Source of the DNA: Candidatus Nomurabacteria bacterium RIFCSPLOWO2_01_FULL_39_18
Lineage (GTDB): Bacteria; Patescibacteriota; Minisyncoccia; Phycocordibacterales; UBA9973
Length of the DNA: 64,000 bases
Assembly: GCA_001787005.1 (NCBI GenBank)
Contig: MFUV01000010.1
Span: forward strand, 73,955-137,954
Direction of reading: 5' to 3'
This document shows positions 11,333 to 58,986 of this stretch, in pieces (position 1 is the stretch's first letter; every line of letters starts with the position of its first letter). Position numbers and translations under genes: made by a program. The notes below the pieces were generated by a model. That model saw only the letters and a list, made by a program, of their open reading frames with translations, searched no databases and was not told the origin of the DNA.

Positions 11333-12631
11333 ATGAGAATCTTGAGCATCGAGACATCTTGCGATGATACGGCAATAAGCATTATGGAGGCAAAGGGGGG
11401 TGTTACGAACGCCTCCTTCGGCGTATTGGCAAACACTTCAAATTCACAAATAAAAGTCCATATCCCGTACGGTGGAGTTTATCCAGTGCTGGCAAAACGG
11501 GAACATACTAAAAATCTGCCAATCCTTCTAGAACAAGCATTAAAGGAAGCAAAACTAGAGAAAGAAAATAGTCCTGTGGATGTTATTGCTGTCACTTACG
11601 GTCCGGGGCTGGAGATGTGTTTGTGGGAGGGAATAATTTTCGCACAAAAATTAGCGAAAAAGTGGGAAGTGCCGTTAATCCCCGTAAACCATATGGAGGG
11701 GCATGTGTTGTCAGTATTCGGGAAAGATAAAGGGAAGTTTAAAATCCCTAAAATAAAATTTCCCATGCTTTCCTTGCTCGTTTCCGGCAGACATACGCAG
11801 TTAGTACTGTCTAAAAAACCCGCCCGACCGGACGCTAGCCCGACAAGGTCATTCTGGCGGGGTCGTTCGGGCGGGTGGTTGCAATACGAAATTATCGGTA
11901 CAACCTTAGATGACGCAGTTGGTGAAGCTTTCGACAAAGTTGCCAGAATGCTCGATCTTCCCTACCCGGGCGGACCGGAGATTTCTAAACTGGCAGAAGA
12001 AGCCAGAATCTTGCGCAAGGGAAGCATTGCGCAAGCTGGCGACAGGAAAAGAGGGGCTTTGCTCTTACAGAGACTTGGGAGCGCGTCGTCTGCTTTCCAG
12101 CAGACCCCCGCACGAGGAATTTTTCAGCAGAAAAATATCCGTGCTCTGGAAGAGCAAAGCCCCTCTTTAAAGCTTCCTCGCCCAATGCTTCACAGTAAAA
12201 ATTTTGATTTCTCTTTCGCAGGATTGAAAACCGCTGTGCTTTACCTCATACATGATCTGAAAAAAGAACATTCCAACATTTTGCAAAATAACCAAATGAA
12301 AATGCAGATTGCTTTAGAGTTTGAGAATGCGGCGATAGAGTGCCTTACACACAAAACAAAAAAGGCTATAGAAAAATATAAAATCAAAACACTCATCGTG
12401 GCTGGCGGGGTGGCCGCGAATAAACATTTAAGAAATGAGATGCAAAAAATCACCACCCCAGACCCCTCCTCAAAAAGGAGGGGAGGAATTAAACTCCTCT
12501 TCCCCACCAGAGAACTCTCGGGGGACAATTCTCTGATGATCGGCATCGCCGGATACCTAAATTATCTAAAAAATAAGAAGAAAGTTCCCAAACTAGAGAG
12601 CATCAAAGCGACTGGTAATTTAAGGCTCTAA
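11333..12631 (+). CDS. tsaD: tRNA N6-threonylcarbamoyladenosine synthase TsaD (Kae1/Gcp family) with two GC-rich insertions
   Basis: MRILSIETSCDDTAISI, HMEGHVL, GRHTQLVL...YEIIGTTLDDAVGEAFDKVARML, FSFAGLKTAV. Insertions lie at about 11816..11881 and 12010..12170 relative to the TsaD consensus. Confidence 0.85.
   Translation: MRILSIETSCDDTAISIMEAKGGVTNASFGVLANTSNSQIKVHIPYGGVYPVLAKREHTKNLPILLEQALKEAKLEKENSPVDVIAVTYGPGLEMCLWEGIIFAQKLAKKWEVPLIPVNHMEGHVLSVFGKDKGKFKIPKIKFPMLSLLVSGRHTQLVLSKKPARPDASPTRSFWRGRSGGWLQYEIIGTTLDDAVGEAFDKVARMLDLPYPGGPEISKLAEEARILRKGSIAQAGDRKRGALLLQRLGSASSAFQQTPARGIFQQKNIRALEEQSPSLKLPRPMLHSKNFDFSFAGLKTAVLYLIHDLKKEHSNILQNNQMKMQIALEFENAAIECLTHKTKKAIEKYKIKTLIVAGGVAANKHLRNEMQKITTPDPSSKRRGGIKLLFPTRELSGDNSLMIGIAGYLNYLKNKKKVPKLESIKATGNLRL
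11816..11881. repeat. GC-rich hairpin element in-frame in tsaD (cccgcccgac ... gtcgttcgggcggg)
   Basis: An imperfect inverted repeat encodes SKKPARPDASPTRSFWRGRSGGW between the conserved HTQLVL and YEIIGTT segments. It shares a cccgac-aaggtc core with the valS 3' hairpins. Confidence 0.7.
12010..12170. repeat. Composite palindromic element in-frame in tsaD: 25-bp arms aaagaggggctttgctcttacagag / ctctggaagagcaaagcccctcttt (1 mismatch) plus cttgcgcaag palindromes
   Basis: The arms at 12048..12072 and 12144..12168 are reverse complements. The interior has nested hairpins (ctgct-ttcc-agcag). Encodes about 55 extra residues before the FSFAGLKT motif. Confidence 0.7.
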
Positions 12632-17354: not shown

Positions 17355-17600
17355 TTACTGACCGAACTGTTTTATATTATTTAACACATCACCTGCTCCG
17401 CTATATACGCCTATTAATTGCTCTATATACGGCTGGATAAAATAATAAGCGCCAAGAGCAGAGCCTATAATAAGGACCCAATACAATATGGTCATCATCC
17501 TCTGAAAGCGCATTGAGCGCCTCATGGAGTGCAGTATACTATTATTCTCCTTTGCCAGCGCTAGAGTCTCCTCTAAAAGCTTTTTGGATTCGGGATCCAT
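17355..17600 (-). CDS. Small membrane protein, unknown
   Basis: 81-aa ORF with one hydrophobic helix. No recognisable motif. Confidence 0.35.
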   Translation of the reverse strand: MDPESKKLLEETLALAKENNSILHSMRRSMRFQRMMTILYWVLIIGSALGAYYFIQPYIEQLIGVYSGAGDVLNNIKQFGQ

Positions 17601-17730
17601 CCCGTACGAAATTTCATTAAATTAATAAAATGACCAATCCCATATACGAAACTTTATTAGCAAGATTTCGTACGGGATCCATAGCTACAATTTAGCATAA
17701 TAATTAAAGAAATAAAAGGTTACAGGAAAC

Positions 17731-19126: not shown

Positions 19127-19182
19127 TGTTCAGTGTTAAACACTGTTAAACACTCAGTGTTGAACATTTCGATGTTGAACAT
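19127..19182. repeat. REP-like hairpin repeats, family A (units gtgttgaacac / tgttgaacatttcg), 5' flank of RAYT-1
   Basis: Tandem imperfect palindromes: cagtgttaaacactgttaaacactcagtgttgaacatttcgatgttgaacat. Confidence 0.7.
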
Positions 19183-19635: not shown

Positions 19636-20301
19636 ATGAGAAATATAAAAATAGCACCCGGAGAATATTATCATATTCTTAATCGTGGAATGAGTAAGCA
19701 ACTAATTTTTCATGACAATAGAGATAGAACAAGATTCCTCTTTCTAATTTTATACTTTCAATCCCCTGTTACAATTCAAAATATACATCGTCCAGTAAAG
19801 TCATTTGTTGAACACTCGGTGTTTAACATTGATAAAGAGATTGAGCAAGAAATTGTTACAAGGAAGTTCGTAGAACTCGTCTCCTTTTGCTTAATGCCAA
19901 ATCATTTTCACTTAATCGTCAAAGAAATCGAGGAAAATGGTATGGCTAGATACATGCAAAGAGTCTTGAATGGTTATACCAAATACTGTAATACAAAATA
20001 CAATAAATCGGGACATCTTTTTCAGGGACCATATAAAGCAGTACATATAAGGAGTAACGAGCAACTTTTATATTTATCTTCATATGTCCACAGGAATCCG
20101 AGAGAACTGAAAGAGTGGTTAAATAAAGAAAGTAGTTATCCATGGTCAAGTTACCAAGATTTTATAAAGAAGAATAGGTTTAAAGAATTACTTGTTCTTG
20201 ATATAATCAGTGGACAATTCAAAAATAAAGACAAGTATAATAAATTTATAAAGGAGAGTACGGCAAAATTATTAAAGGAAGAACTGGATTGGATAGACTA
20301 G
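19636..20301 (+). CDS. REP-associated tyrosine transposase-like (IS200/IS605 Y1 HuH transposase family), RAYT-1
   Basis: GEYYHILNRG near the N-terminus, the HuH motif CLMPNHFHLIV, and the downstream QGPYK with Tyr. Size is 221 aa. A REP-A copy (tgttgaacactcggtgtttaacat, 19806..19829) lies inside the ORF, in-frame. Confidence 0.75.
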   Translation: MRNIKIAPGEYYHILNRGMSKQLIFHDNRDRTRFLFLILYFQSPVTIQNIHRPVKSFVEHSVFNIDKEIEQEIVTRKFVELVSFCLMPNHFHLIVKEIEENGMARYMQRVLNGYTKYCNTKYNKSGHLFQGPYKAVHIRSNEQLLYLSSYVHRNPRELKEWLNKESSYPWSSYQDFIKKNRFKELLVLDIISGQFKNKDKYNKFIKESTAKLLKEELDWID

Positions 20302-20971: not shown

Positions 20972-22858
20972 TTATTCCACGCTTTTCATCATTTTCAAAA
21001 ATACATCTTGGGGGATGTTCACTCGCCCCCTTTCCTTCATTTTCTTTTTGCCCTTCTTTTGCTTCTCACGAAGTTTCATTTTGCGAGTGATGTCTCCGCC
21101 ATACATGTGCTGAGTAACATCCTTCTTCATGCCAGAGAGAGTGCGTGATGAGATGATGCGCCCTAGCGCACGACCTTGAATTTTCAAAGTGAACATTTGC
21201 CGTGGAAGCAGGCTCTCTAATTTAAGAACAGTTTTTTCAGCTTCAATTTCCACTCTTTTCCTGGAAACCACCTTAGAAAAAGCAGGAACTACTTCATCGG
21301 CAACCAGCACATCAAGTCTAGTAACATTCGCCATCCTCATATCATCTATCTGGTAAGAGATGGAACCATAGCCAGATGATGCGCTTTTCAATTCATCGAA
21401 AAAGTTGCGCATCAGCTCGCGAAGCGGCATTTTCACGGACAAAATAAAACGATTGCCTGCCTGCGCCCCGCCTGCGCGGGCAGGAGACAGGTCGCCGAAG
21501 TTTTCTGTCTCTCCAATCTCGGCTTCGTGGTCAAATAAAATTTGCATAATAGAACCCAGATATTTTGCAGGAGTTATGATCTTAGCTACCACCCACGGTT
21601 CAAAAACAGTTTCAATATTACTATCGTCTGGGAAAAAATATGGAGAATACACTTTTTCCTTTTTACTATTCTTCATTAACACTTCATAGGTGATAGACGG
21701 AGTGGTAATGATTAATTCTAAATTAAATTCCCGCCTTAACCTCTCGGTAATAATCTCCAAATGTAACATTCCCAAAAATCCGCACCGGAAACCGCGACCA
21801 AGAGAGCCGGAAGACTCTTCTTCATAAGAAAAAGCCGAATCTGAGAGTTTAAGCTTTCCAAGGGCTAATTTAAGTTCGGCAAAATCGTCTGCGTCTTCGG
21901 GAAAAACTGAAGCCCAGACCACGGGCATCGGCTGCATATAGCCAGGCAGAGCCGGCAAGGGATTTCTAAGCATCGTAATGGTATCTCCGACAGATGCAAT
22001 TCCGGGTTTCTTAATACCGGTAACAATGTATCCTGTATCACCGGCAGAAAGATGCTCCCGCGGAGTTTCTTCGGGCGAGAAAGTGCCCACCTCGAGAGAG
22101 TTGAATTTCTCGCCCGATATTGCAAAAACTAAATTTTCGCCTTTCTTGATTTTGCCGTCAAGCACTCGTATAAAAACAATTACCCCCCTATGATTGGAAT
22201 ATTTGAAATCAAAGACAAGAGCGCGCAAGCTGTCATCCCCTTTATACGTTTCTTTGGGCTCTGGAACGCGTTTGATTATCTCCTGTAAGAGATTCTCCAC
22301 TCCCTCGCCCGTACGGCCAGAAACCAATAGTATTTCTTCGGGATCACAATTTAAAAGCTTTATAACTTCTTCTCTAACTTCGGATACCCTAGCAAGTGGT
22401 GAATCAATCTTCGAAAGCACAGGAATGATTTGCCTGCCTCCTTCTTTGCCCCCCTCGCGCGCCATATTGAGCGTAGTCAGCGTTTGAGCCTGCACACCCT
22501 GAGTGGAGTCGACTAGTAAAATAGAGCCTTCTACGGCCTTTAGAGCGCGAGAAACTTCATAAGAAAAATCTATGTGCCCAGGGGTATCAATCAGGTTCAG
22601 TACATACTTAGTGGTCGAAGCACCACTTGGTGCTTCGACCACTAAGTCATATTCCATCCTGACTGGCTGCATTTTGATGGTGATCCCCCGCTCGCGCTCA
22701 AGCTCCATGACGTCGAGCACTTGCTCTCTCATTTTGCGAGTCTCGATGGTATGAGTAATCTCGAGCATTCTGTCCGCCAAGGTGCTCTTGCCATGATCAA
22801 TGTGCGCGATGATTGAAAAGTTTCGTATGTGTTTTAAATCCATTTTTTTGTGTGTCAA
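20972..22858 (-). CDS. lepA: Elongation factor 4 (LepA) carrying the 36-nt element insertion
   Basis: G1 motif NFSIIAHIDHGKSTLADR. DTPGHIDF. The LepA-specific C-terminal domain is present. It carries the LSPARAGGAQAG insertion encoded by 21456..21491. Confidence 0.9.
   Translation of the reverse strand: MTHKKMDLKHIRNFSIIAHIDHGKSTLADRMLEITHTIETRKMREQVLDVMELERERGITIKMQPVRMEYDLVVEAPSGASTTKYVLNLIDTPGHIDFSYEVSRALKAVEGSILLVDSTQGVQAQTLTTLNMAREGGKEGGRQIIPVLSKIDSPLARVSEVREEVIKLLNCDPEEILLVSGRTGEGVENLLQEIIKRVPEPKETYKGDDSLRALVFDFKYSNHRGVIVFIRVLDGKIKKGENLVFAISGEKFNSLEVGTFSPEETPREHLSAGDTGYIVTGIKKPGIASVGDTITMLRNPLPALPGYMQPMPVVWASVFPEDADDFAELKLALGKLKLSDSAFSYEEESSGSLGRGFRCGFLGMLHLEIITERLRREFNLELIITTPSITYEVLMKNSKKEKVYSPYFFPDDSNIETVFEPWVVAKIITPAKYLGSIMQILFDHEAEIGETENFGDLSPARAGGAQAGNRFILSVKMPLRELMRNFFDELKSASSGYGSISYQIDDMRMANVTRLDVLVADEVVPAFSKVVSRKRVEIEAEKTVLKLESLLPRQMFTLKIQGRALGRIISSRTLSGMKKDVTQHMYGGDITRKMKLREKQKKGKKKMKERGRVNIPQDVFLKMMKSVE
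21456..21491. repeat. 36-nt GC-rich palindromic element, copy 2, in-frame in lepA
   Basis: Identical to 5784..5819. Same orientation relative to its minus-strand host gene. Confidence 0.85.
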
Positions 22859-24787: not shown

Positions 24788-26467
24788 TCAAAGCCCTTCT
24801 TGAGGAGGTGCGACGACTTTTGCCCTCCAGAATTTGGTTTTGAAAGTTTTTATTATTTCTTTCAATTCTTCATTTCCCAGAAGATGCAAGACCAAAATTG
24901 CCGCCCAAATACCCAGGATGCCAGAGATAAAGCCCTGCAGAAAAACTCCCCAGAATGTGGTGGTGCCAAAAATTGGTGAAAATATATTCAAAGATAGATA
25001 CGCCACAAGTCCCAGAAAAAATGCGGCGCCCAAACTTTGGAAAAAAGTCTTGGTAATGAAGGAATCCCCTTTCATAAAGTCACGCCTCACGAAAAACCAA
25101 AGAATAATTGAATTCAAAATGGTGCCGGAAGAATACGCAAGCGGAAGCATTAATACTTCTGTGCCGGGAATATCCGTGACCTTCAGCATCGACTCAATAA
25201 AATAATGAAAGATTGGAATATTTTTAAATATATATATAAATAAATAAGATAAAATTATAATAAAAATGGAACAGAAGAAATTAGTCGAAAGCGGCCTTCT
25301 GGTATTGCCCTTGGCATAGTAAGCTCGAGACAAAAGAGCAATCATTCCTTGAGCAACAACTGAAATAGAAAAGATGGCGAGCGATGCTGCTACTAGACGG
25401 GTATTTTCCCAAGAAAAAGATCCAGAACCAAGGATTACTCGAACGATCTGCGCTCGAACCACAATAAACAGAAATACTACGGGGAGCGACCAAAACACGA
25501 TGGCACGCGCGGCTTCTTTAAGATGACTTTTAAATTCATCCATTTTTCCAAGAGAGATAGACTTCGCCAGGGTGGGAAAGGCAGCCACTGCATAGGATAT
25601 ACCGATGATGTTAAGAGGCACCGATTGAAGATTGAAGGAAAGGTTGAATATTGAAATGGAACCACTCTCTAGATATGAAGCAAGGGCGATGATAGAAATC
25701 AAAGCCACGTTGTTAAAAGCCAGGCCTAGGGTACGAGGTAGTGAAGTCATCGCTACTTGTTTGACATCTTTAAAATTAATAGGAAAAGAAAATTTAAACG
25801 TAAACCCGAGAGTTTTGGATGCGAATGTTTGAACCAAAAAATGCATCAAGGCACCCAGGACTACCCCCATGGCCAACCCATAAATACCAAAGCGGGGATA
25901 GAAAAATATAACACCAGAAATAATCCCCAAATTATAAAAAACCGGACTTAAGGAATAAATAAAAAACTTCCGAAAAAGCTGGGTAAGGCTCCCAAAAAGA
26001 TTCGAAAGTCCCATTAAAATAGGTGAGAGCAACATTATGCGCGAAAGCATAACTACTTTTGTTTGCATTATCGCAGTAAAACCCGGCGCAATGAAAGACA
26101 CTAAATATGGCATTAGTAAATAGGCTATTAGGGAAACGAGTATCATTACAAGAAAAAAAACAGTAAAAACATTACTTAAGAATTTGCGCGCTTCTTCGCT
26201 TATTTTTTCGCCTGGTATTTTTGACGCTATAAATGGTATTAGCACTGTGACAGAAACCAGAGAAGCAATAGATATGAAGATGAGATCAGGAATTCTAAAC
26301 GCCGCATAATAGGCATCTAGCGTCGCCCCCGGCCCGATGAAGTGCGCAAAAGCGCGGTCACGAAATAACGCCAAAATTTGCGAAAGAAAAGCAAAAGACC
26401 CCAGAAGAAGCGCCGCTTGATTTATGTTCACATATTCCTTGCTGAAAATTTTAAAAATCCTATCCAT
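24788..26467 (-). CDS. murJ: Lipid II flippase MurJ (MviN) family
   Basis: FRDRAFAHFIGPGATLDAYYAAFRIPDLIF matches the MurJ N-terminal signature. About 14 TM helices. Size is 559 aa. Confidence 0.8.
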   Translation of the reverse strand: MDRIFKIFSKEYVNINQAALLLGSFAFLSQILALFRDRAFAHFIGPGATLDAYYAAFRIPDLIFISIASLVSVTVLIPFIASKIPGEKISEEARKFLSNVFTVFFLVMILVSLIAYLLMPYLVSFIAPGFTAIMQTKVVMLSRIMLLSPILMGLSNLFGSLTQLFRKFFIYSLSPVFYNLGIISGVIFFYPRFGIYGLAMGVVLGALMHFLVQTFASKTLGFTFKFSFPINFKDVKQVAMTSLPRTLGLAFNNVALISIIALASYLESGSISIFNLSFNLQSVPLNIIGISYAVAAFPTLAKSISLGKMDEFKSHLKEAARAIVFWSLPVVFLFIVVRAQIVRVILGSGSFSWENTRLVAASLAIFSISVVAQGMIALLSRAYYAKGNTRRPLSTNFFCSIFIIILSYLFIYIFKNIPIFHYFIESMLKVTDIPGTEVLMLPLAYSSGTILNSIILWFFVRRDFMKGDSFITKTFFQSLGAAFFLGLVAYLSLNIFSPIFGTTTFWGVFLQGFISGILGIWAAILVLHLLGNEELKEIIKTFKTKFWRAKVVAPPQEGL

Positions 26468-26471
26468 CCCG

Positions 26472-29390
26472 TTACATTACTATGTTGATCAATCTATTTT
26501 TTATATAAATAAATTTTTTAATTTCTTTGCCCGCTGTATGCCTTGCGATAACCTCGTTGGCAAGAGATTTTTTTTTTACACTTTCTTCATTTTCGTCTGC
26601 CTGTACCATAATCTCCGCCCTGACTTTGCCATTTATCTGCACAACAATTTTGACCTCATCATCTTTAATTTTTTCCTTATCATATTCCGGCCATGAAGAG
26701 AGATGAACGGATTTCTTTTCTCCAAGCATACTCCAAAGCTCTTCAGTGATATGCGGCGCAAAAGGAGAAAGAATCTGTAGAAACTTCTTGAGGTCTTCTA
26801 GGCTGACGCCGCTCTTTTCCATTTCATTTAGAAGTATCATAAGTGAGGACACTGCAGTATTAAAGCGCATACTATCAATGTCTTCACTGACTTTCTTGAT
26901 GGTTTTATGAAGAAGTTTTGCAAGCGAAGCCGGAGAAGATTTCTGAGTCGCGTAAGTCCCACCCGGTACTCCGGGAAGGGTAAAGCGCGAAGAAATCTTC
27001 TCCGGCGAAGCTATTTTATGTCCAATCTTCCAAACTCTTTCTATAAACCTCCTCGGCCCCATTAGGCTGTCTGTGCTCCATGACACTGATTGATCAAATG
27101 GCCCCATAAACATTTCATATAAGCGGAGTGTATCCGCGCCGTATGTAGAAACTATACTATCTGGATTTATAATATTTCCAAACCTTTTCGACATTTTCCT
27201 GCCATCGGAAGCAATAATCAGCCCTACGTGTTGAAGTTTCTTAAAAGGCTCTTTGTTCACCACCACGCCTATGTCGTAAAGGAATTTGTGCCAGAACCTC
27301 GCATATATCAAGTGTCTGGTCGCATGTTCTGCTCCGCCAACATATAAATCCACCTCATTCCAATATTTTTCTATATTTTTATCCACCAGAGCTTTGTTAT
27401 TGTCTGGGTCCATGTAGCGAAGATAGTACCAAGAAGAACCGGCCCATTGGGGCATAGTATTGCTCTCTCTTCTTAAAACTTTTTGGCCAACTTTCACATT
27501 TATCCAGTTTGGCACGTTCGCTAAAGGCGATTCTGCGGTTCCAGTCGGCTTATAAGACTTAACTTTTGGCAATTTCACTGGCAAATCTTTTTCTTTAACT
27601 GGGATAACTTTAGTGCCGTCGCGCAAAACCGGTATCGGTTCGCCCCAATAACGTTGGCGAGAAAATACCCAGTCGTGAAGTTTGTAAGTTACTTTTCTAT
27701 AACCAAATCCTTTTTTCACAATGTAATCAATGATATCTTCGCGTACTTCCCCCCATTCCCTGCCCTTGAATTCTACTGGTTCGGTAAGAATGCCATTTTT
27801 GATGATTGGTTGATTAATTCCGAGATACCTCTTCCAAATCACTTTCATATCTTCTCTGCTTACAAAATCCAAAACTTCTTTTTCGGAAACCCAATGCATA
27901 TCGTAAAAATCTTTTTGTTTCTGTTCTATCTCTCCTTGTTCATTGTTTTGGAGTTTAAAGTAAAGAGGAGTAAAATGCGCAAAACGGTTTTGCTTTTTTA
28001 TATCCTGCCAAAATTTGGAATGAACTACCCCACCTAATTGTTTTACAAATTTTATATTTTTATATCCCGTTTCTTCAGTTATCTCTCGGATTCCGGTTTC
28101 AACTGGATCTTCCCCATCTTCCACCCCTCCTACTACAAAACCCCGCCAATCTGTATTTTTTACGCTATGACAAAGAAATTTATTCTCTGACCAGTGCTTG
28201 ATAATGCAAACAACTGCATTTCTTTCGATAAAAGGTTCGCTCTCTCTCGCCTTATCTAAGCCTTCACTTCTCACCACCAAGGGCTCGACAACTTCTCGAA
28301 GAGGAATGTTATATTTTTTCGCGAAGGCAAAATCTCGCTCGTCATGCACACTTGAATTAACAATACCCGTCCCATAGTCCGCAATAACAAAAGTTGCAAT
28401 CCAAACAGGCAAATCGCCTGTGCCGAAAGGATTGTCCACATATCGCCCAGTAAAAATTCCTTCAATTTCTTTTTCTGTTTCAAACCCTTTTTTTATTTTT
28501 CTTTGTTTGAATTTCTCAACAAAATCTAAAACGGGTTCCTCATATTTTGTTCTCTTTATTAACTTTTTTACCAACGGATGCTCCGGCGCAATAACACAAA
28601 AGGTCTGTGCCATGAAAGTTTGCGGAATAGAATCATAGGCTTCAATTTTAATTCCTAAGTCCTTTACCTTCTGTTTGTACATGATGCCCTCGCTTCGTCC
28701 GATCCAATTTCTTTGACTTTCCTTTATGGATTCCGGCCAGTCTAGGGCGTCTAAATCCGCCAAGAGTCTGTCAGCATAGTCAGTAATCTTCAAAACCCAT
28801 TGGCGAATAGGCTTTTTTTCAACGACGGCTCCGCACCTTTCGCACTTTCCGTCTTCCACATCTTCATTGGCCAGGATAGTCATATCCCTAGGACACCAAT
28901 TCACCGGTTCGTTAGACTCATAAGCAAATCCACGTTCTAGCAATTTTAAAAATATCCACTGAGTCCATTTGTAAAATTTCGGATCTGAAGTATTCACCTC
29001 TCGAGACCAATCATAATCAAATCCGATAATTTCTAATTGTTTTTTAAATCGAGCAATATTTTTTGCCACCGACACGACGGGATTGGTTTTTGTTTTAATG
29101 GCATAATTTTCAGTAGGCAATCCGAAAGAATCAAACCCCATGGGGTGCAGAACATTAAACCCCTGCATTCTTTTTTTCCTAGAGACTACGTCTGTGGCAA
29201 TGTAGCCCTTCGGATGGCCAACATGGATGCCTTCCCCCGAGACATAGGGAAACATATCTAAAATATAGAATTTCCCTTGCCCCGCCGTAGCTTTATGCGA
29301 AGGTGGGTTTTTTGTTTGGTAGATTTTTTTCTTAGCCCATTCTTTCTGCCATTTTTTCTCAATCTTCTTGTGGTCGTATTCCTTCTTCAT
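26472..29390 (-). CDS. leuS: Leucyl-tRNA synthetase with an inserted NUDIX hydrolase domain and a palindromic insertion
   Basis: HIGH region FPYVSGEGIHVGHPKGY. KMSKS motif KMSKRFGN. Editing-domain landmarks GTGIVNSSVHDERDFAFAKKYNIP. The 972-aa length exceeds typical bacterial LeuS because of a Nudix insert of about 155 aa. Confidence 0.9.
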   Translation of the reverse strand: MKKEYDHKKIEKKWQKEWAKKKIYQTKNPPSHKATAGQGKFYILDMFPYVSGEGIHVGHPKGYIATDVVSRKKRMQGFNVLHPMGFDSFGLPTENYAIKTKTNPVVSVAKNIARFKKQLEIIGFDYDWSREVNTSDPKFYKWTQWIFLKLLERGFAYESNEPVNWCPRDMTILANEDVEDGKCERCGAVVEKKPIRQWVLKITDYADRLLADLDALDWPESIKESQRNWIGRSEGIMYKQKVKDLGIKIEAYDSIPQTFMAQTFCVIAPEHPLVKKLIKRTKYEEPVLDFVEKFKQRKIKKGFETEKEIEGIFTGRYVDNPFGTGDLPVWIATFVIADYGTGIVNSSVHDERDFAFAKKYNIPLREVVEPLVVRSEGLDKARESEPFIERNAVVCIIKHWSENKFLCHSVKNTDWRGFVVGGVEDGEDPVETGIREITEETGYKNIKFVKQLGGVVHSKFWQDIKKQNRFAHFTPLYFKLQNNEQGEIEQKQKDFYDMHWVSEKEVLDFVSREDMKVIWKRYLGINQPIIKNGILTEPVEFKGREWGEVREDIIDYIVKKGFGYRKVTYKLHDWVFSRQRYWGEPIPVLRDGTKVIPVKEKDLPVKLPKVKSYKPTGTAESPLANVPNWINVKVGQKVLRRESNTMPQWAGSSWYYLRYMDPDNNKALVDKNIEKYWNEVDLYVGGAEHATRHLIYARFWHKFLYDIGVVVNKEPFKKLQHVGLIIASDGRKMSKRFGNIINPDSIVSTYGADTLRLYEMFMGPFDQSVSWSTDSLMGPRRFIERVWKIGHKIASPEKISSRFTLPGVPGGTYATQKSSPASLAKLLHKTIKKVSEDIDSMRFNTAVSSLMILLNEMEKSGVSLEDLKKFLQILSPFAPHITEELWSMLGEKKSVHLSSWPEYDKEKIKDDEVKIVVQINGKVRAEIMVQADENEESVKKKSLANEVIARHTAGKEIKKFIYIKNRLINIVM
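26930..27005. repeat. Palindromic element in-frame in leuS: perfect 15-bp arms ccggagaagatttct / agaaatcttctccgg with inner hairpin cccgg-tact-ccggg
   Basis: Arms at 26930..26944 and 26991..27005 are exact reverse complements. Encodes the ...LPGVPGGTYATQKSSPASLAK... segment. Confidence 0.75.
27810..28286 (-). other. NUDIX hydrolase domain embedded in LeuS (about aa 369-527)
   Basis: Complete Nudix box GGVEDGEDPVETGIREITEETGY (Gx5Ex7REUxEExGU). It is inserted between the end of the CP1 editing domain (KKYNIPLREVV) and the conserved linker that precedes KLHDWVFSRQRYWGEPIP. Confidence 0.85.
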
Positions 29391-30629: not shown

Positions 30630-31520
30630 TTATATACCCCACACAGCAGTATTGGCAAGTGAAACAAGGCGATTATTCGACTTTTCCAAGACACAGAGCT
30701 CCCCGGCTTCTGTTTGACCCTTAAAATCTTTCATTATTTCAGCAAGCGCATAACTAAGTGAAAGCGCAGAAGAATCGGTAGCATAAGAAGTCAAAATCAC
30801 AAAAAGGGGCTTGTCGGTTAGAACCCTCCCGACCAAAGAAAGCAGTTTCGGCAACATTTCTTCTATCTTCCATACTTCCCCCCTGGGACCACGGCCGTAC
30901 TTGGGCGGATCCATAATCACAGCGTCATACTTATTGCCTCGTTTTATTTCTCGCTCTAGAAATTTTGTGGCGTCATCTTCTATCACCCGCATTGGCATTT
31001 TATCAAGGCTAGATAATTTTTGATTTTCTTTCGTCCAATTTAATACTTGCTTCGAGGCATCCACATGCGTCACATCTCCACCAGCCCTGAGAGCAAATAG
31101 GCTCGCCACACCGGTGTAGCCGAATAAATTAAGAAATTTTATTTTCTTGCCGGAGTTTTTTATTTTATTCTCTATGTAATCCCAGTGATTTGCCTGCTCC
31201 GGGAAAAATCCCAAATGTCTAAATGGTGTGGGAGAAACAAAAAATTTAATTCCCCTGTATTCCATCTCCCACTTCGTGTCAAGGTTCAACCTTGACATTT
31301 GCCACCCGGCTTTGGCACCAACTTTCGAGCTCCAGAATTTTCCATCAACATTTGTCCACTGTTGTTGAACACTCGGTGTTGAACATTTCGGCCAGACAGC
31401 ATCTTCATAAGGACGAATAAAAGTGTATTTCCCGAATCGCTCCAGCTTCTCTCCACCACCCGTATCTAGAAGCTCGTAGTCCACCCAATCCTTTGAACAA
31501 AAAATTTTTATCTGGTTCAT
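30630..31520 (-). CDS. Class I SAM-dependent RNA methyltransferase, RlmI/RlmK-like
   Basis: LNLFGYTGVASLFALRAGGDVTHVDASKQVLNW is SAM-binding motif I with a post-I acidic residue. Motif IV is VIMDPPKYGRG. It parallels E. coli RlmI (VLNVFSYTGGF...VIVMDPPKF). It hosts a REP-A insertion. Confidence 0.65.
   Translation of the reverse strand: MNQIKIFCSKDWVDYELLDTGGGEKLERFGKYTFIRPYEDAVWPKCSTPSVQQQWTNVDGKFWSSKVGAKAGWQMSRLNLDTKWEMEYRGIKFFVSPTPFRHLGFFPEQANHWDYIENKIKNSGKKIKFLNLFGYTGVASLFALRAGGDVTHVDASKQVLNWTKENQKLSSLDKMPMRVIEDDATKFLEREIKRGNKYDAVIMDPPKYGRGPRGEVWKIEEMLPKLLSLVGRVLTDKPLFVILTSYATDSSALSLSYALAEIMKDFKGQTEAGELCVLEKSNNRLVSLANTAVWGI
31361..31392. repeat. REP-like family A copy inserted in-frame within the methyltransferase gene
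   Basis: tgttgttgaacactcggtgttgaacatttcgg encodes ...PKCSTPSVQQQW... on the minus strand. It is identical in core to the RAYT-1 flanking repeats. Confidence 0.75.
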
Positions 31521-37260: not shown

Positions 37261-37310
37261 TTACCGAATATTCGGTAAAATTGGCACCAAATATGCCGAA
37301 TATTCGGTAA
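37261..37310. promoter_or_regulatory. Tandem operator-like palindromes ttaccgaatattcggtaa (perfect 18-mer) and tgccgaatattcggtaaaa, centres about 31 bp apart
   Basis: Exact dyad symmetry, read directly. They sit at the start of a roughly 750-bp ORF-free region (37233..37988). Confidence 0.5.
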
Positions 37311-55726: not shown

Positions 55727-55784
55727 AATTTTTCCCCAGATAGAGCTTTAGACTCTATCTAGAGTCTAAAGCTCTATCTGGCTA

Positions 55785-58230: not shown

Positions 58231-58292
58231 ACCAAGGATTTACCAAGGGGAACCCTTGGTAAATTTAGTTGCTACCAAGGGGAACCCTTGGT
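58231..58292. repeat. REP-like hairpin repeats, family B (taccaaggggaacccttggta), two copies 5' of RAYT-2
   Basis: Stem ccaaggg/cccttgg with loop gaa. The copies are 20 bp apart. Confidence 0.75.
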
Positions 58293-58303
58293 ATGATGAC
58301 TAG

Positions 58304-58960
58304 ATGCAACGAAAAACAAAATTTGTGATCGGAGAGTTTTATCATATTTACAATCGTGGAGTAGAAAAAAGAATTATTTTCCCAAATATATCTGATTATA
58401 AAAGATTTCTAGCTCTTTTATATCTTGCAAACAGTAATGAAATAATACAATTCCGAAATGATTTTTCTAGAACTTTCCTTGAGAAAATTTTCGAGAAAGA
58501 TCGAGGCGAGCCGTTAGTTGCCATTGGAGCATATTGCTTAATGCCAAACCATTTTCATTTATTACTCACTCCCCTGGTGGAGGGAGGGATATCAAAATTC
58601 ATGTTAAAGCTTCAGACTGGGTATTCTATGTATTTCAATAAAAAGAATGATCGGGTTGGGGGGCTTTTCCAGGGAGTTTTTAAATCACAACATATAGATA
58701 AAAATGAATATTTAATGTATATTTATGCGTATATTCATTTAAATCCAACGAAGTTAAAAAATTCAGAATGGAAAACACAACCAAAAAGTTTTTTAAATAA
58801 ACTAAAAAAATTTATTGCTGAATATCCATATTCTAGCTTGCAAGAATATTTATCTGGAAATTATAGAATACTAAACCCTAAGCCATTCCCGATGGAGAAA
58901 AAAGATCTTATTGACCACGATTCTATGATAGATGATTTTAGCGAGGTATTACCAAGGTGA
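58304..58960 (+). CDS. REP-associated tyrosine transposase-like (IS200/IS605 Y1 HuH family), RAYT-2
   Basis: GEFYHIYNRG. HuH motif AYCLMPNHFHLLLTP. Downstream catalytic Tyr region GGLFQGVFKSQHI. Collinear with RAYT-1 and about 30% identical by eye. Confidence 0.8.
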   Translation: MQRKTKFVIGEFYHIYNRGVEKRIIFPNISDYKRFLALLYLANSNEIIQFRNDFSRTFLEKIFEKDRGEPLVAIGAYCLMPNHFHLLLTPLVEGGISKFMLKLQTGYSMYFNKKNDRVGGLFQGVFKSQHIDKNEYLMYIYAYIHLNPTKLKNSEWKTQPKSFLNKLKKFIAEYPYSSLQEYLSGNYRILNPKPFPMEKKDLIDHDSMIDDFSEVLPR

Positions 58961-58986
58961 ACCCTTGGTAAATTAGTAAATTAGTG
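58950..58986. repeat. REP-like family B copy (taccaaggtgaacccttggta) overlapping the RAYT-2 stop, followed by a direct repeat aaattagtaaattagt
   Basis: Same stem as the upstream copies. Located between RAYT-2 and the end of the giant surface-protein gene. Confidence 0.7.

Follow-up and report, generated by a model that had tools for sequence, protein, structure and literature searches.

The palindrome in leuS

The 64,000-nucleotide stretch analysed here (the window) comes from Candidatus Nomurabacteria bacterium RIFCSPLOWO2_01_FULL_39_18, and its gene for leucyl-tRNA synthetase, leuS, contains a long DNA palindrome that is translated in frame. The gene lies on the minus strand at 26472..29390. 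Its open reading frame encodes 972 residues with Pfam matches to tRNA-synt_1, the editing domain and Anticodon_1, and the product is 100% identical to the LeuS of this organism; the same protein is found on 7 contigs.

The whole palindromic element, defined by repeat search, translation and folding, is 78 nt long (26929..27006, minus strand), occupies leuS codons 795-821 in frame and encodes the peptide SPEKISSRFTLPGVPGGTYATQKSSPA. A sequence-only reading of this DNA had described a perfect inverted repeat with an inner hairpin here. The repeat search confirms this, with arms that are 100% complementary across a 46-nt spacer, except that the arms are 16 nt long and not 15. The peptide quoted in that reading, …GVPGGTYATQKSSPASLAK…, is correct.

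The arms are GCCGGAGAAGATTTCT (26929-26944) and AGAAATCTTCTCCGGC (26991-27006), each the reverse complement of the other, so that in the mRNA sense the 5' arm at 26991..27006 reads GCCGGAGAAGATTTCT and the 3' arm at 26929..26944 reads AGAAATCTTCTCCGGC. The outermost ~12 nt of the 5' arm are specific to this site, and its inner bases overlap a core (26934..27001, minus strand) conserved in the family described below, which was located with an nhmmer profile built from 50 copies (E 4.5e-21). Inside the arms is a middle stem (26948..26990, minus strand) formed by tcgcg and cgcga at 26948-26952 and 26986-26990; among copies this stem covaries (CAG/CTG, TGG/CCA, etc.), alignment columns 29-31 pairing with 67-69. 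The best-conserved part of the family is the apical nested hairpin CCCTTCCCGGAGTACCGGGTGGG (26958..26980, minus strand), which encodes LPGVPGG and consists of ccc (26958-26960) opposite ggg (26978-26980), enclosing cccgg (26962-26966), the loop tact (26967-26970) and ccggg (26971-26975). A 7-nt direct repeat, GCGAAGC, was read from the sequence at 26924..26930, where it overlaps the end of the palindrome, and at 27005..27011.

The RNA structure prediction that the sequence-only reading had proposed gives a very stable fold. The mRNA strand folds at -52.4 kcal/mol, compared to -25.1 +/- 3.2 kcal/mol in 200 shuffles, none of which was as good (z -8.58). Given the base composition of the window, only about 0.003 perfect inverted repeats of at least 16 nt within 120 nt are expected by chance per 64 kb. 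The GC content of the element is 57.7%, against 39.8% for the window. A scan of 26000-28000 against Rfam 15 gave no family matching the element at E <= 10.

That reading had also proposed a search for further copies. There are none in the window: the leuS arm sequence has no second occurrence in the 64 kb, and both a core search allowing up to 3 mismatches and the nhmmer profile find only the leuS copy. In other genomes and metagenomes, by contrast, the core is present in about 130 copies.

The insertion loop in LeuS

When 120 LeuS homologues are aligned with MAFFT, the element falls in a hypervariable linker between the motifs RFxERVWK and LHKTIKKV. The linker ranges from several to about 45 residues, and many of the orthologues have gaps there. 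The segment therefore does not align without gaps to conserved LeuS residues, which supports its description as an in-frame palindromic element. Relative to the E. coli enzyme, it lies in a loop with many gaps, flanked by two helices. An AlphaFold2 model built from a 60-sequence alignment (mean pLDDT, the predicted local distance difference test score, of 86.4) agrees with this: residues 795-820 are modelled as coil between helices at 773-794 and 821-839. This coil is the least confident part of a model that is confident elsewhere, and of the three stretches with pLDDT <50 it contains two, at 799-804 and 809-816. The best explanation of these predictions is that the element forms a permissive, disordered loop of 26 residues in the anticodon-binding domain, without a LeuS-specific role.

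Orthologues that are 57-62% identical to the window protein have a clearly related peptide, and related DNA, at the same site. The closest homologues with long inserts, P0116 (74%) and P0004 (72%), carry a diverged branch of the family there, one insert being in the forward orientation with 22-nt perfect arms and the other inverted. In the closest orthologue, P0002, the linker (L004:12300-12500) contains a different palindrome, ATGTCAAAGGCCGCCTTTGACA...TGTCAAAGACGGCCTTTGACAT, which encodes MSKAAFDKKSVSKTAFD. Its MSKAAFD unit is self-complementary, so that both strands give the same peptide, and it recurs in LeuS P0015, P0079 and P0090. Since the site holds both diverged members of the family and unrelated palindromes, the loop has been occupied persistently, with turnover of the occupant.

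The same protein has a NUDIX hydrolase domain at residues 405-508 (window 27867-28178), just past the editing-domain match, with the Nudix box GGVEDGEDPVETGIREITEETGY. This insert has a confident AlphaFold fold and is common to most Paceibacteria LeuS matches. Some LeuS homologues also carry HAD or alpha/beta-hydrolase domains and reach 1100-1550 residues.

Distribution and host genes

The family was collected with a 22-nt degenerate pattern that describes the apical hairpin, CCYTTCCCGGRGTAYCGGGNGG, and for which about 2 chance matches are expected per scan. It matched 52 loci in the genomes of species representatives, 81 loci in metagenomes and 0 in viral contigs. Nearly all of the named records with a core are Nomurabacteria, Paceibacteria or Minisyncoccia. 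The exact core occurs 1-3 times per genome, and several genomes have 2-3 copies on separate contigs. The profile search added more diverged copies, one of them intergenic and with stops in all frames. With a core of ~60 nt, the elements measure 56-100 nt overall, and the copies in one folding set form long hairpins of -32 to -67 kcal/mol.

Most copies are intragenic, in at least 17 host genes that are unrelated to one another. Besides LeuS, the hosts confirmed by Pfam are DNA polymerase III delta' (HolB), an FAD-linked oxidase (2 sites), UvrA, UvrB, UvrC (2 sites), UvrD, LigA (2 sites), Pol I, RecJ, an RluA-type pseudouridine synthase, an S-adenosylmethionine (SAM) methyltransferase, a NusB-NUDIX protein and a class-V aminotransferase. 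SpoU and KhpA genes also have copies, at their 5' ends. Repair and replication genes make up 8 of the ~17 hosts, including all six nucleotide excision repair (NER) components. The sequence-only reading had associated such palindromes with aminoacyl-tRNA synthetase genes. The copy analysed here does sit in one, but this is incidental in view of the range of hosts and the intergenic DNA.

Two genes have both of their sites filled. LigA in L036 has copies at 2675-2741 and 2028-2094; one lies, as read from the sequence, within the zinc-finger loop, and the other, ~650 nt upstream, has a compensated apex (CCCCG/CGGGG). UvrC in L107 has copies at 2072-2134 and 2514-2567, one of which is in frame 1 and the other in frame 2. 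At oxidase site 3 of L027 and L129 the element is partly tandem-duplicated (…KNFPGFTLPGVPGGTYAVSNSSSASYFTDKNFPGFNFF…). The L027 element abuts the contig end, which suggests that such repeats break assemblies.

Conserved core and site-specific arms

Fifty copies give an essentially ungapped alignment over about 60 nt, with the consensus rAATTyTTC-nnG-CTTwACCCTTCCCGGAGTACCGGGyGGGACyyACrC-Cnn-TCAGAATTyTT. Over the 8-25 nt outside this core, the sequence is different at every site, yet the two sides pair with each other. In the RNAalifold consensus of the 50 copies, 91.2% of the cells in paired columns form standard pairs, compared to 66.2% in shuffled alignments (0 of 500 as good) and 35-53% in slid ones. 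Double-sided changes number 402, against about 134 when shuffled and about 100 when slid, and the covariation score is 0.59 vs 0.14. One-sided (G·U) changes are rare.

The outer arms are perfect in 32 of these copies, and where they contain mismatches, A·C (12) outnumbers G·U (3), so the wobble signature of a sense RNA is not found in them. Diverged copies preserve the apical hairpin by compensation, as CCCGG/CCGGG, CCCCG/CGGGG or CCTCG/CGAGG. This pattern of pairing is the signature of a Watson-Crick DNA palindrome and not of a strand-specific RNA structure.

Core and arms also differ in their rate of change. In-register alignments of five host-site groups, excluding the positions used in the search pattern, give a third-codon-position identity between genomes of 68-87% in the core, compared to 39-55% in the host flanks. 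For the outer arms it is about the flank rate in three of the five groups (39-53%) and higher in the other two. Cores in different genes of the same genome differ at 8.1 of 60 positions and those from different genomes and sites at 12.8 of 60 (permutation p 0.005); at the same site in different genomes the difference is 8.9 of 60. Compared with the LigA copy of L036, another Nomurabacteria genome from Rifle, the window core differs by only 2 of 58 nt; the figure is 3 of 58 for the methyltransferase copies, 5 for an inverted pseudouridine synthase copy and at least 6 for the other LeuS copies. Its arms are unrelated to those of other copies, with 14-27 of 36 arm and flank positions differing. 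The core is thus the unit that copies share, and the arms are local.

A single orientation and frame is used in 116 of 137 copies, and the resulting peptide, (K/E)xSS(R/G)(F/L)TLPGVPGGT(Y/H)xxQ(K/N)S, is conserved across the host proteins. Inverted cores, reading SHPVLREG, occupy the same host site in HolB, the RluD-like pseudouridine synthase and the aminotransferase, and UvrD and site 2 of UvrC use another frame, frame 2 giving RPSRSTGWDP. The three frames in use are the three that are most often free of stop codons (49, 37 and 32 of 50 copies). Even so, the main frame is commoner than avoidance of stop codons would predict. This makes some selection on the peptide likely and suggests an additional filter on what is encoded.

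Gain, loss and turnover

Filled, empty and partly deleted alleles are all present. The methyltransferase gene of the window (30630-31520) is an empty allele lacking the 27 codons that are present in L021, L126 and L137, and L025, L042 and L051 lack the element at oxidase site 3. Remnants are found at oxidase site 4 of L013, which retains only AAAAATTCT, and in P0010 (L138), which retains the 5' arm and the edge of the core. An internally deleted copy with 21-nt perfect arms is found in L003. Oxidase site 4 is filled by unrelated palindromes in L026, L029, L038 and L048. We considered whether the core inserts into pre-existing palindromes, but this is unsupported, the empty alleles at oxidase site 3 and in the window methyltransferase not being palindromic. 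The remnants in L013 and P0010 and the unrelated palindromes at shared sites are nevertheless compatible with turnover at hot spots.

One copy offers a lead on where the arms come from. In L021 the arm CAGAAGAAAATT is nearly equal to GAGAAGAAAATT, 27 nt upstream, and this single case is suggestive of arms copied from local host sequence. A 3-nt TTC direct repeat flanks 9 of 86 unique copies, among them the window copy with its 7-nt GCGAAGC, but no general target-site duplication is seen.

Y1 transposases and other palindromes in the window

The window contains two genes for Y1 transposases (Pfam Y1_Tnp) resembling RAYTs, the transposases associated with repetitive extragenic palindromes (REPs). 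The first (58304-58960, plus strand) is 51% identical to the Y1 protein of L004. Its REPs, with the palindrome TACCAAGGGGAACCCTTGGTA, are at 58241-58261 and 58273-58293 upstream and at 58950-58970, overlapping the 3' end of the gene. The second (19636-20301, plus strand) is flanked by the palindrome GTTGAACACTCGGTGTTCAAC, with copies at 19145, 19587, 19807 and 20314/20328, the one at 19807 lying within its own coding sequence. A further REP of this second transposase lies in frame within the SAM-methyltransferase gene (30630-31520, minus strand) at 31364-31384, where it encodes KCSTPSVQQQW and orthologues show the shorter KTL----KNEW. The Y1 gene of L039 is distant from the core copy in that locus and has a different REP.

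Perfect inverted repeats of at least 12 nt number 21 in the window, compared to about 7 expected. The TsaD gene (11333-12631, plus strand) contains an in-frame hairpin at 12048-12168, with 25-nt arms that are 96% complementary (-68.9 kcal/mol, z -6.5). TsaD is 432 residues long and its Pfam match is in three stretches, which suggests several lineage-specific inserts such as KKPARPDASPTRSFWRGRSGG and TTPDPSSKRRGG. The LepA gene (20972-22858, minus strand) contains a perfect palindrome with 20-nt arms at 22606-22647, encoding DLVVEAPSGASTT in a loop. The LepA orthologue in L002 has no insert at this loop, and that in L004 has a different palindromic insert (SPPRLIEEGVGGG...GTPPPQGGEG). The latter is similar to inserts found in LeuS P0013 and in the oxidase of L029, and so represents a second dispersed in-frame family. 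Long perfect or near-perfect palindromes are also found between genes, at 55736-55781 (22-nt arms), 37261-37310 (24-nt) and 17599-17678 (14-nt), and these may be terminators or further repeat families.

Comparison with known repeat families

The closest parallel in behaviour is with the palindromic elements of Rickettsia, RPE-1 to RPE-10 (Ogata et al. 2000; see the summaries in PMC10969869 and PMC3733652). These too are small palindromes inserted in frame into many unrelated housekeeping genes, with a family-typical peptide and at positions compatible with the fold of the host protein. They also share sites between species and lack an adjacent transposase, and their hosts overlap with those found here (uvr genes, pseudouridine synthase, polymerases). 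However, RPEs belong to Alphaproteobacteria and no sequence similarity is evident. As the hosts here are bacteria of the Candidate Phyla Radiation (CPR), homology by descent is unlikely. RPE-1 is roughly 100-150 bp long, which is larger than the elements described here, and 44 RPE insertions are reported for R. conorii, far from the 1-3 copies per genome in this family. The terminal CGTC tag of RPEs (PMC3733652) has no counterpart, CGTC occurring in 7 of the 50 copies and in inconsistent columns. Finally, a conserved apex on site-specific, co-evolving basal arms is not an architecture described for RPEs.

REPs and their doublets, REPINs, which are mobilised by RAYTs, are similar in being hairpin-forming non-autonomous repeats (PMC3116915, PMC3337134, PMC3733652). 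The window itself holds RAYT-like Y1_Tnp genes with their own REPs, one of these being in frame within a gene, and the similarity of copies within a genome suggests within-genome replication. On the other hand, REPs are overwhelmingly extragenic and number tens to hundreds per genome, whereas this element is mostly intragenic and rare. REPINs have conserved REPs at the base of the hairpin and a variable spacer, which is the reverse of the arrangement here. The terminal unpaired GTAG tag of REPs is found in 1 of 50 aligned copies, and no RAYT flanked by a leuS-type core was found near the copies.

Transposable elements of the miniature inverted-repeat type (MITEs; among them Correia/NEMIS, ERIC, Chunjie and QMITE; PMC10969869) are likewise small, non-coding, stem-loop-forming and dispersed, with occasional in-frame fusions to host genes. 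Their terminal inverted repeats, however, are conserved and match a parent insertion sequence, while here the termini differ at each site and no parent was found. MITEs are also AT-rich and preferentially intergenic, in contrast to the GC-rich and mostly intragenic elements of this family. They have target-site duplications, which here were not seen in 50 of 86 unique copies, a TTC repeat flanking 9 of the 86.

The preference for particular hosts has been seen before. Di Nocera et al. (PMC3733652) noted that intragenic REPs and RPEs in several phyla prefer genes for UvrABC, UvrD, Pol I, ligase and RecBCD, and that they are also found in genes for tRNA synthetases and tRNA pseudouridine synthase. 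The host spectrum found here is essentially the same; the bias is thus known, though unexplained.

Proposed mechanism and alternatives

These observations show that the leuS palindrome belongs to a dispersed family of small, GC-rich DNA hairpins in the Nomurabacteria/Paceibacteria branch of the CPR, and we think it probable that these are non-autonomous mobile elements similar to REPs and RPEs. Each comprises a conserved apical core of ~60 nt, built as a nested hairpin around CCCTTCCCGGAGTACCGGGyGGG, and complementary basal arms specific to each site. The cores may be copied or homogenised within genomes by transposition or gene conversion, and copies would survive only where the host frame stays open in a permissive surface loop. 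The complementarity of the arms would most simply be kept by intrastrand template switching or by repair of extruded hairpins, and not by selection on RNA. Correction of quasipalindromes is a known precedent for such concerted evolution of arms. The recurrent inversion in situ would fit with recombination between the arms. The RAYT genes in the window make a Y1/HUH (RAYT-like) transposase a plausible candidate mobiliser, which would act on hairpins in single-stranded DNA.

Several observations weigh against this interpretation. No transposase adjoins any of the ~135 copies, according to a tblastn search of 140 loci with three Y1 proteins, although this covered 2-15 kb around each copy and a cognate RAYT could be more distant. 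None of the four RAYT-type genes (two in the window, and those of L004 and L039) is flanked by a leuS-type core, each having different REPs. No target-site duplication was found in 50 of 86 unique copies, and copies per genome are few (1-3 exact cores), unlike the bursts typical of REPs or RPEs. The main frame is used at ~16 of ~20 sites, which is beyond what avoidance of stop codons predicts. Genomes with LeuS proteins that are only 47-67% identical have the element at the same host sites, and the core is conserved well above the synonymous rate; purifying selection on a functional motif, and not mobility, could just as well be behind this. Nor does the interpretation account for where the site-specific complementary arms come from.

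Such a motif might act in RNA or in DNA. The sequence-only reading had raised a role in translational pausing, and a cis-acting RNA structure could also be a processing site, for RNase III for example, or a binding site through which repair and replication genes are co-regulated. The stable fold, the synonymous conservation of the core, the sense orientation of most copies and the enrichment of NER and replication genes among the hosts would all fit with this. The stems, however, are strictly Watson-Crick with almost no G·U, and the excess of A·C mismatches is the opposite of what a sense RNA would show. Moreover, inverted cores at the same sites, cores in other frames and cores between genes all point to a DNA-level element and leave the pausing role without support. 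In addition, every host gene has many orthologues without the element, no genome has enough copies to cover a whole pathway, and Rfam offers no match, so we regard an RNA function as quite unlikely. A functional DNA motif would fit complementarity that is purely Watson-Crick; here proteins would bind the apical hairpin, or it would form a cruciform, or it would modulate the activity of repair genes, as in the mutator hypothesis of Di Nocera et al. Some REPs have been proposed as binding sites for gyrase, IHF or Pol I. This proposal is also consistent with the conservation of the core at synonymous sites and with the long occupancy of the host loops, and intragenic REPs of other phyla have the same unexplained bias to repair genes (PMC3733652). 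Against it, presence is patchy even among close relatives, deletion remnants occur, unrelated palindromes substitute at the same sites, the copy number is very low and there is no candidate binding protein. We therefore consider a DNA motif of this kind unlikely.

Selection could instead act on the protein, with the encoded peptide serving as a loop that adds an interaction or a localisation signal. One frame predominates even though the two others are stop-free in 64-74% of copies, and the peptide is conserved across hosts. But the core is tolerated as very different peptides when inverted or in frame 2, its synonymous positions are equally conserved, AlphaFold models it as low-confidence coil, and the hosts are functionally unrelated proteins in which the insertion points are loops of variable length. 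A protein module is accordingly very improbable. That the palindrome arose de novo in leuS, by a template-switch mutation or as an artefact of assembly or amplification, might be supposed from the perfect arms and from their absence elsewhere in the window. It is refuted by the recurrence of the core in many genes and in ~130 independent assemblies produced by many studies, and by the identical protein on 7 contigs.

There is also a more speculative possibility, which we rate as a long shot: an undescribed mode of hairpin-DNA mobility or maintenance. A conserved apex would be repeatedly delivered, flipped and exchanged among the same permissive loops, notably across the whole NER pathway, and the basal stem would be templated locally by fold-back or template-switch synthesis, giving an inverted target duplication. 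If so, the complementary, site-specific arms would be a product of the mechanism and not of selection. In a stronger version, the occupancy of repair and replication genes would itself be functional, tuning repair capacity or mutation rate, and would explain the host bias of REPs and RPEs elsewhere.

Significance

A dispersed, non-autonomous mobile element remains our preferred interpretation of the family. In the literature searched we found no report of palindromic elements, MITEs or RAYTs in Patescibacteria/CPR, and what is new is the occurrence of such a family in a phylum for which none had been described, together with its unusual architecture of core and arms. In practical terms, CPR marker genes that carry such inserts give inflated and distorted protein alignments and phylogenies, and the repeats probably also interrupt metagenome assemblies; one copy, in L027, abuts a contig end. 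With a core conserved above the synonymous rate, and arms that drift almost neutrally while staying complementary, the family is a compact example of concerted evolution in a DNA hairpin. The ~130 copies, with their filled, empty, inverted and remnant alleles, allow two questions to be addressed, namely by what means such elements move when no transposase adjoins them, and what makes them favour repair genes. An independent family in the Candidate Phyla Radiation shows that in-frame palindromic repeats are a general phenomenon, extending beyond Rickettsia and scattered intragenic REPs.

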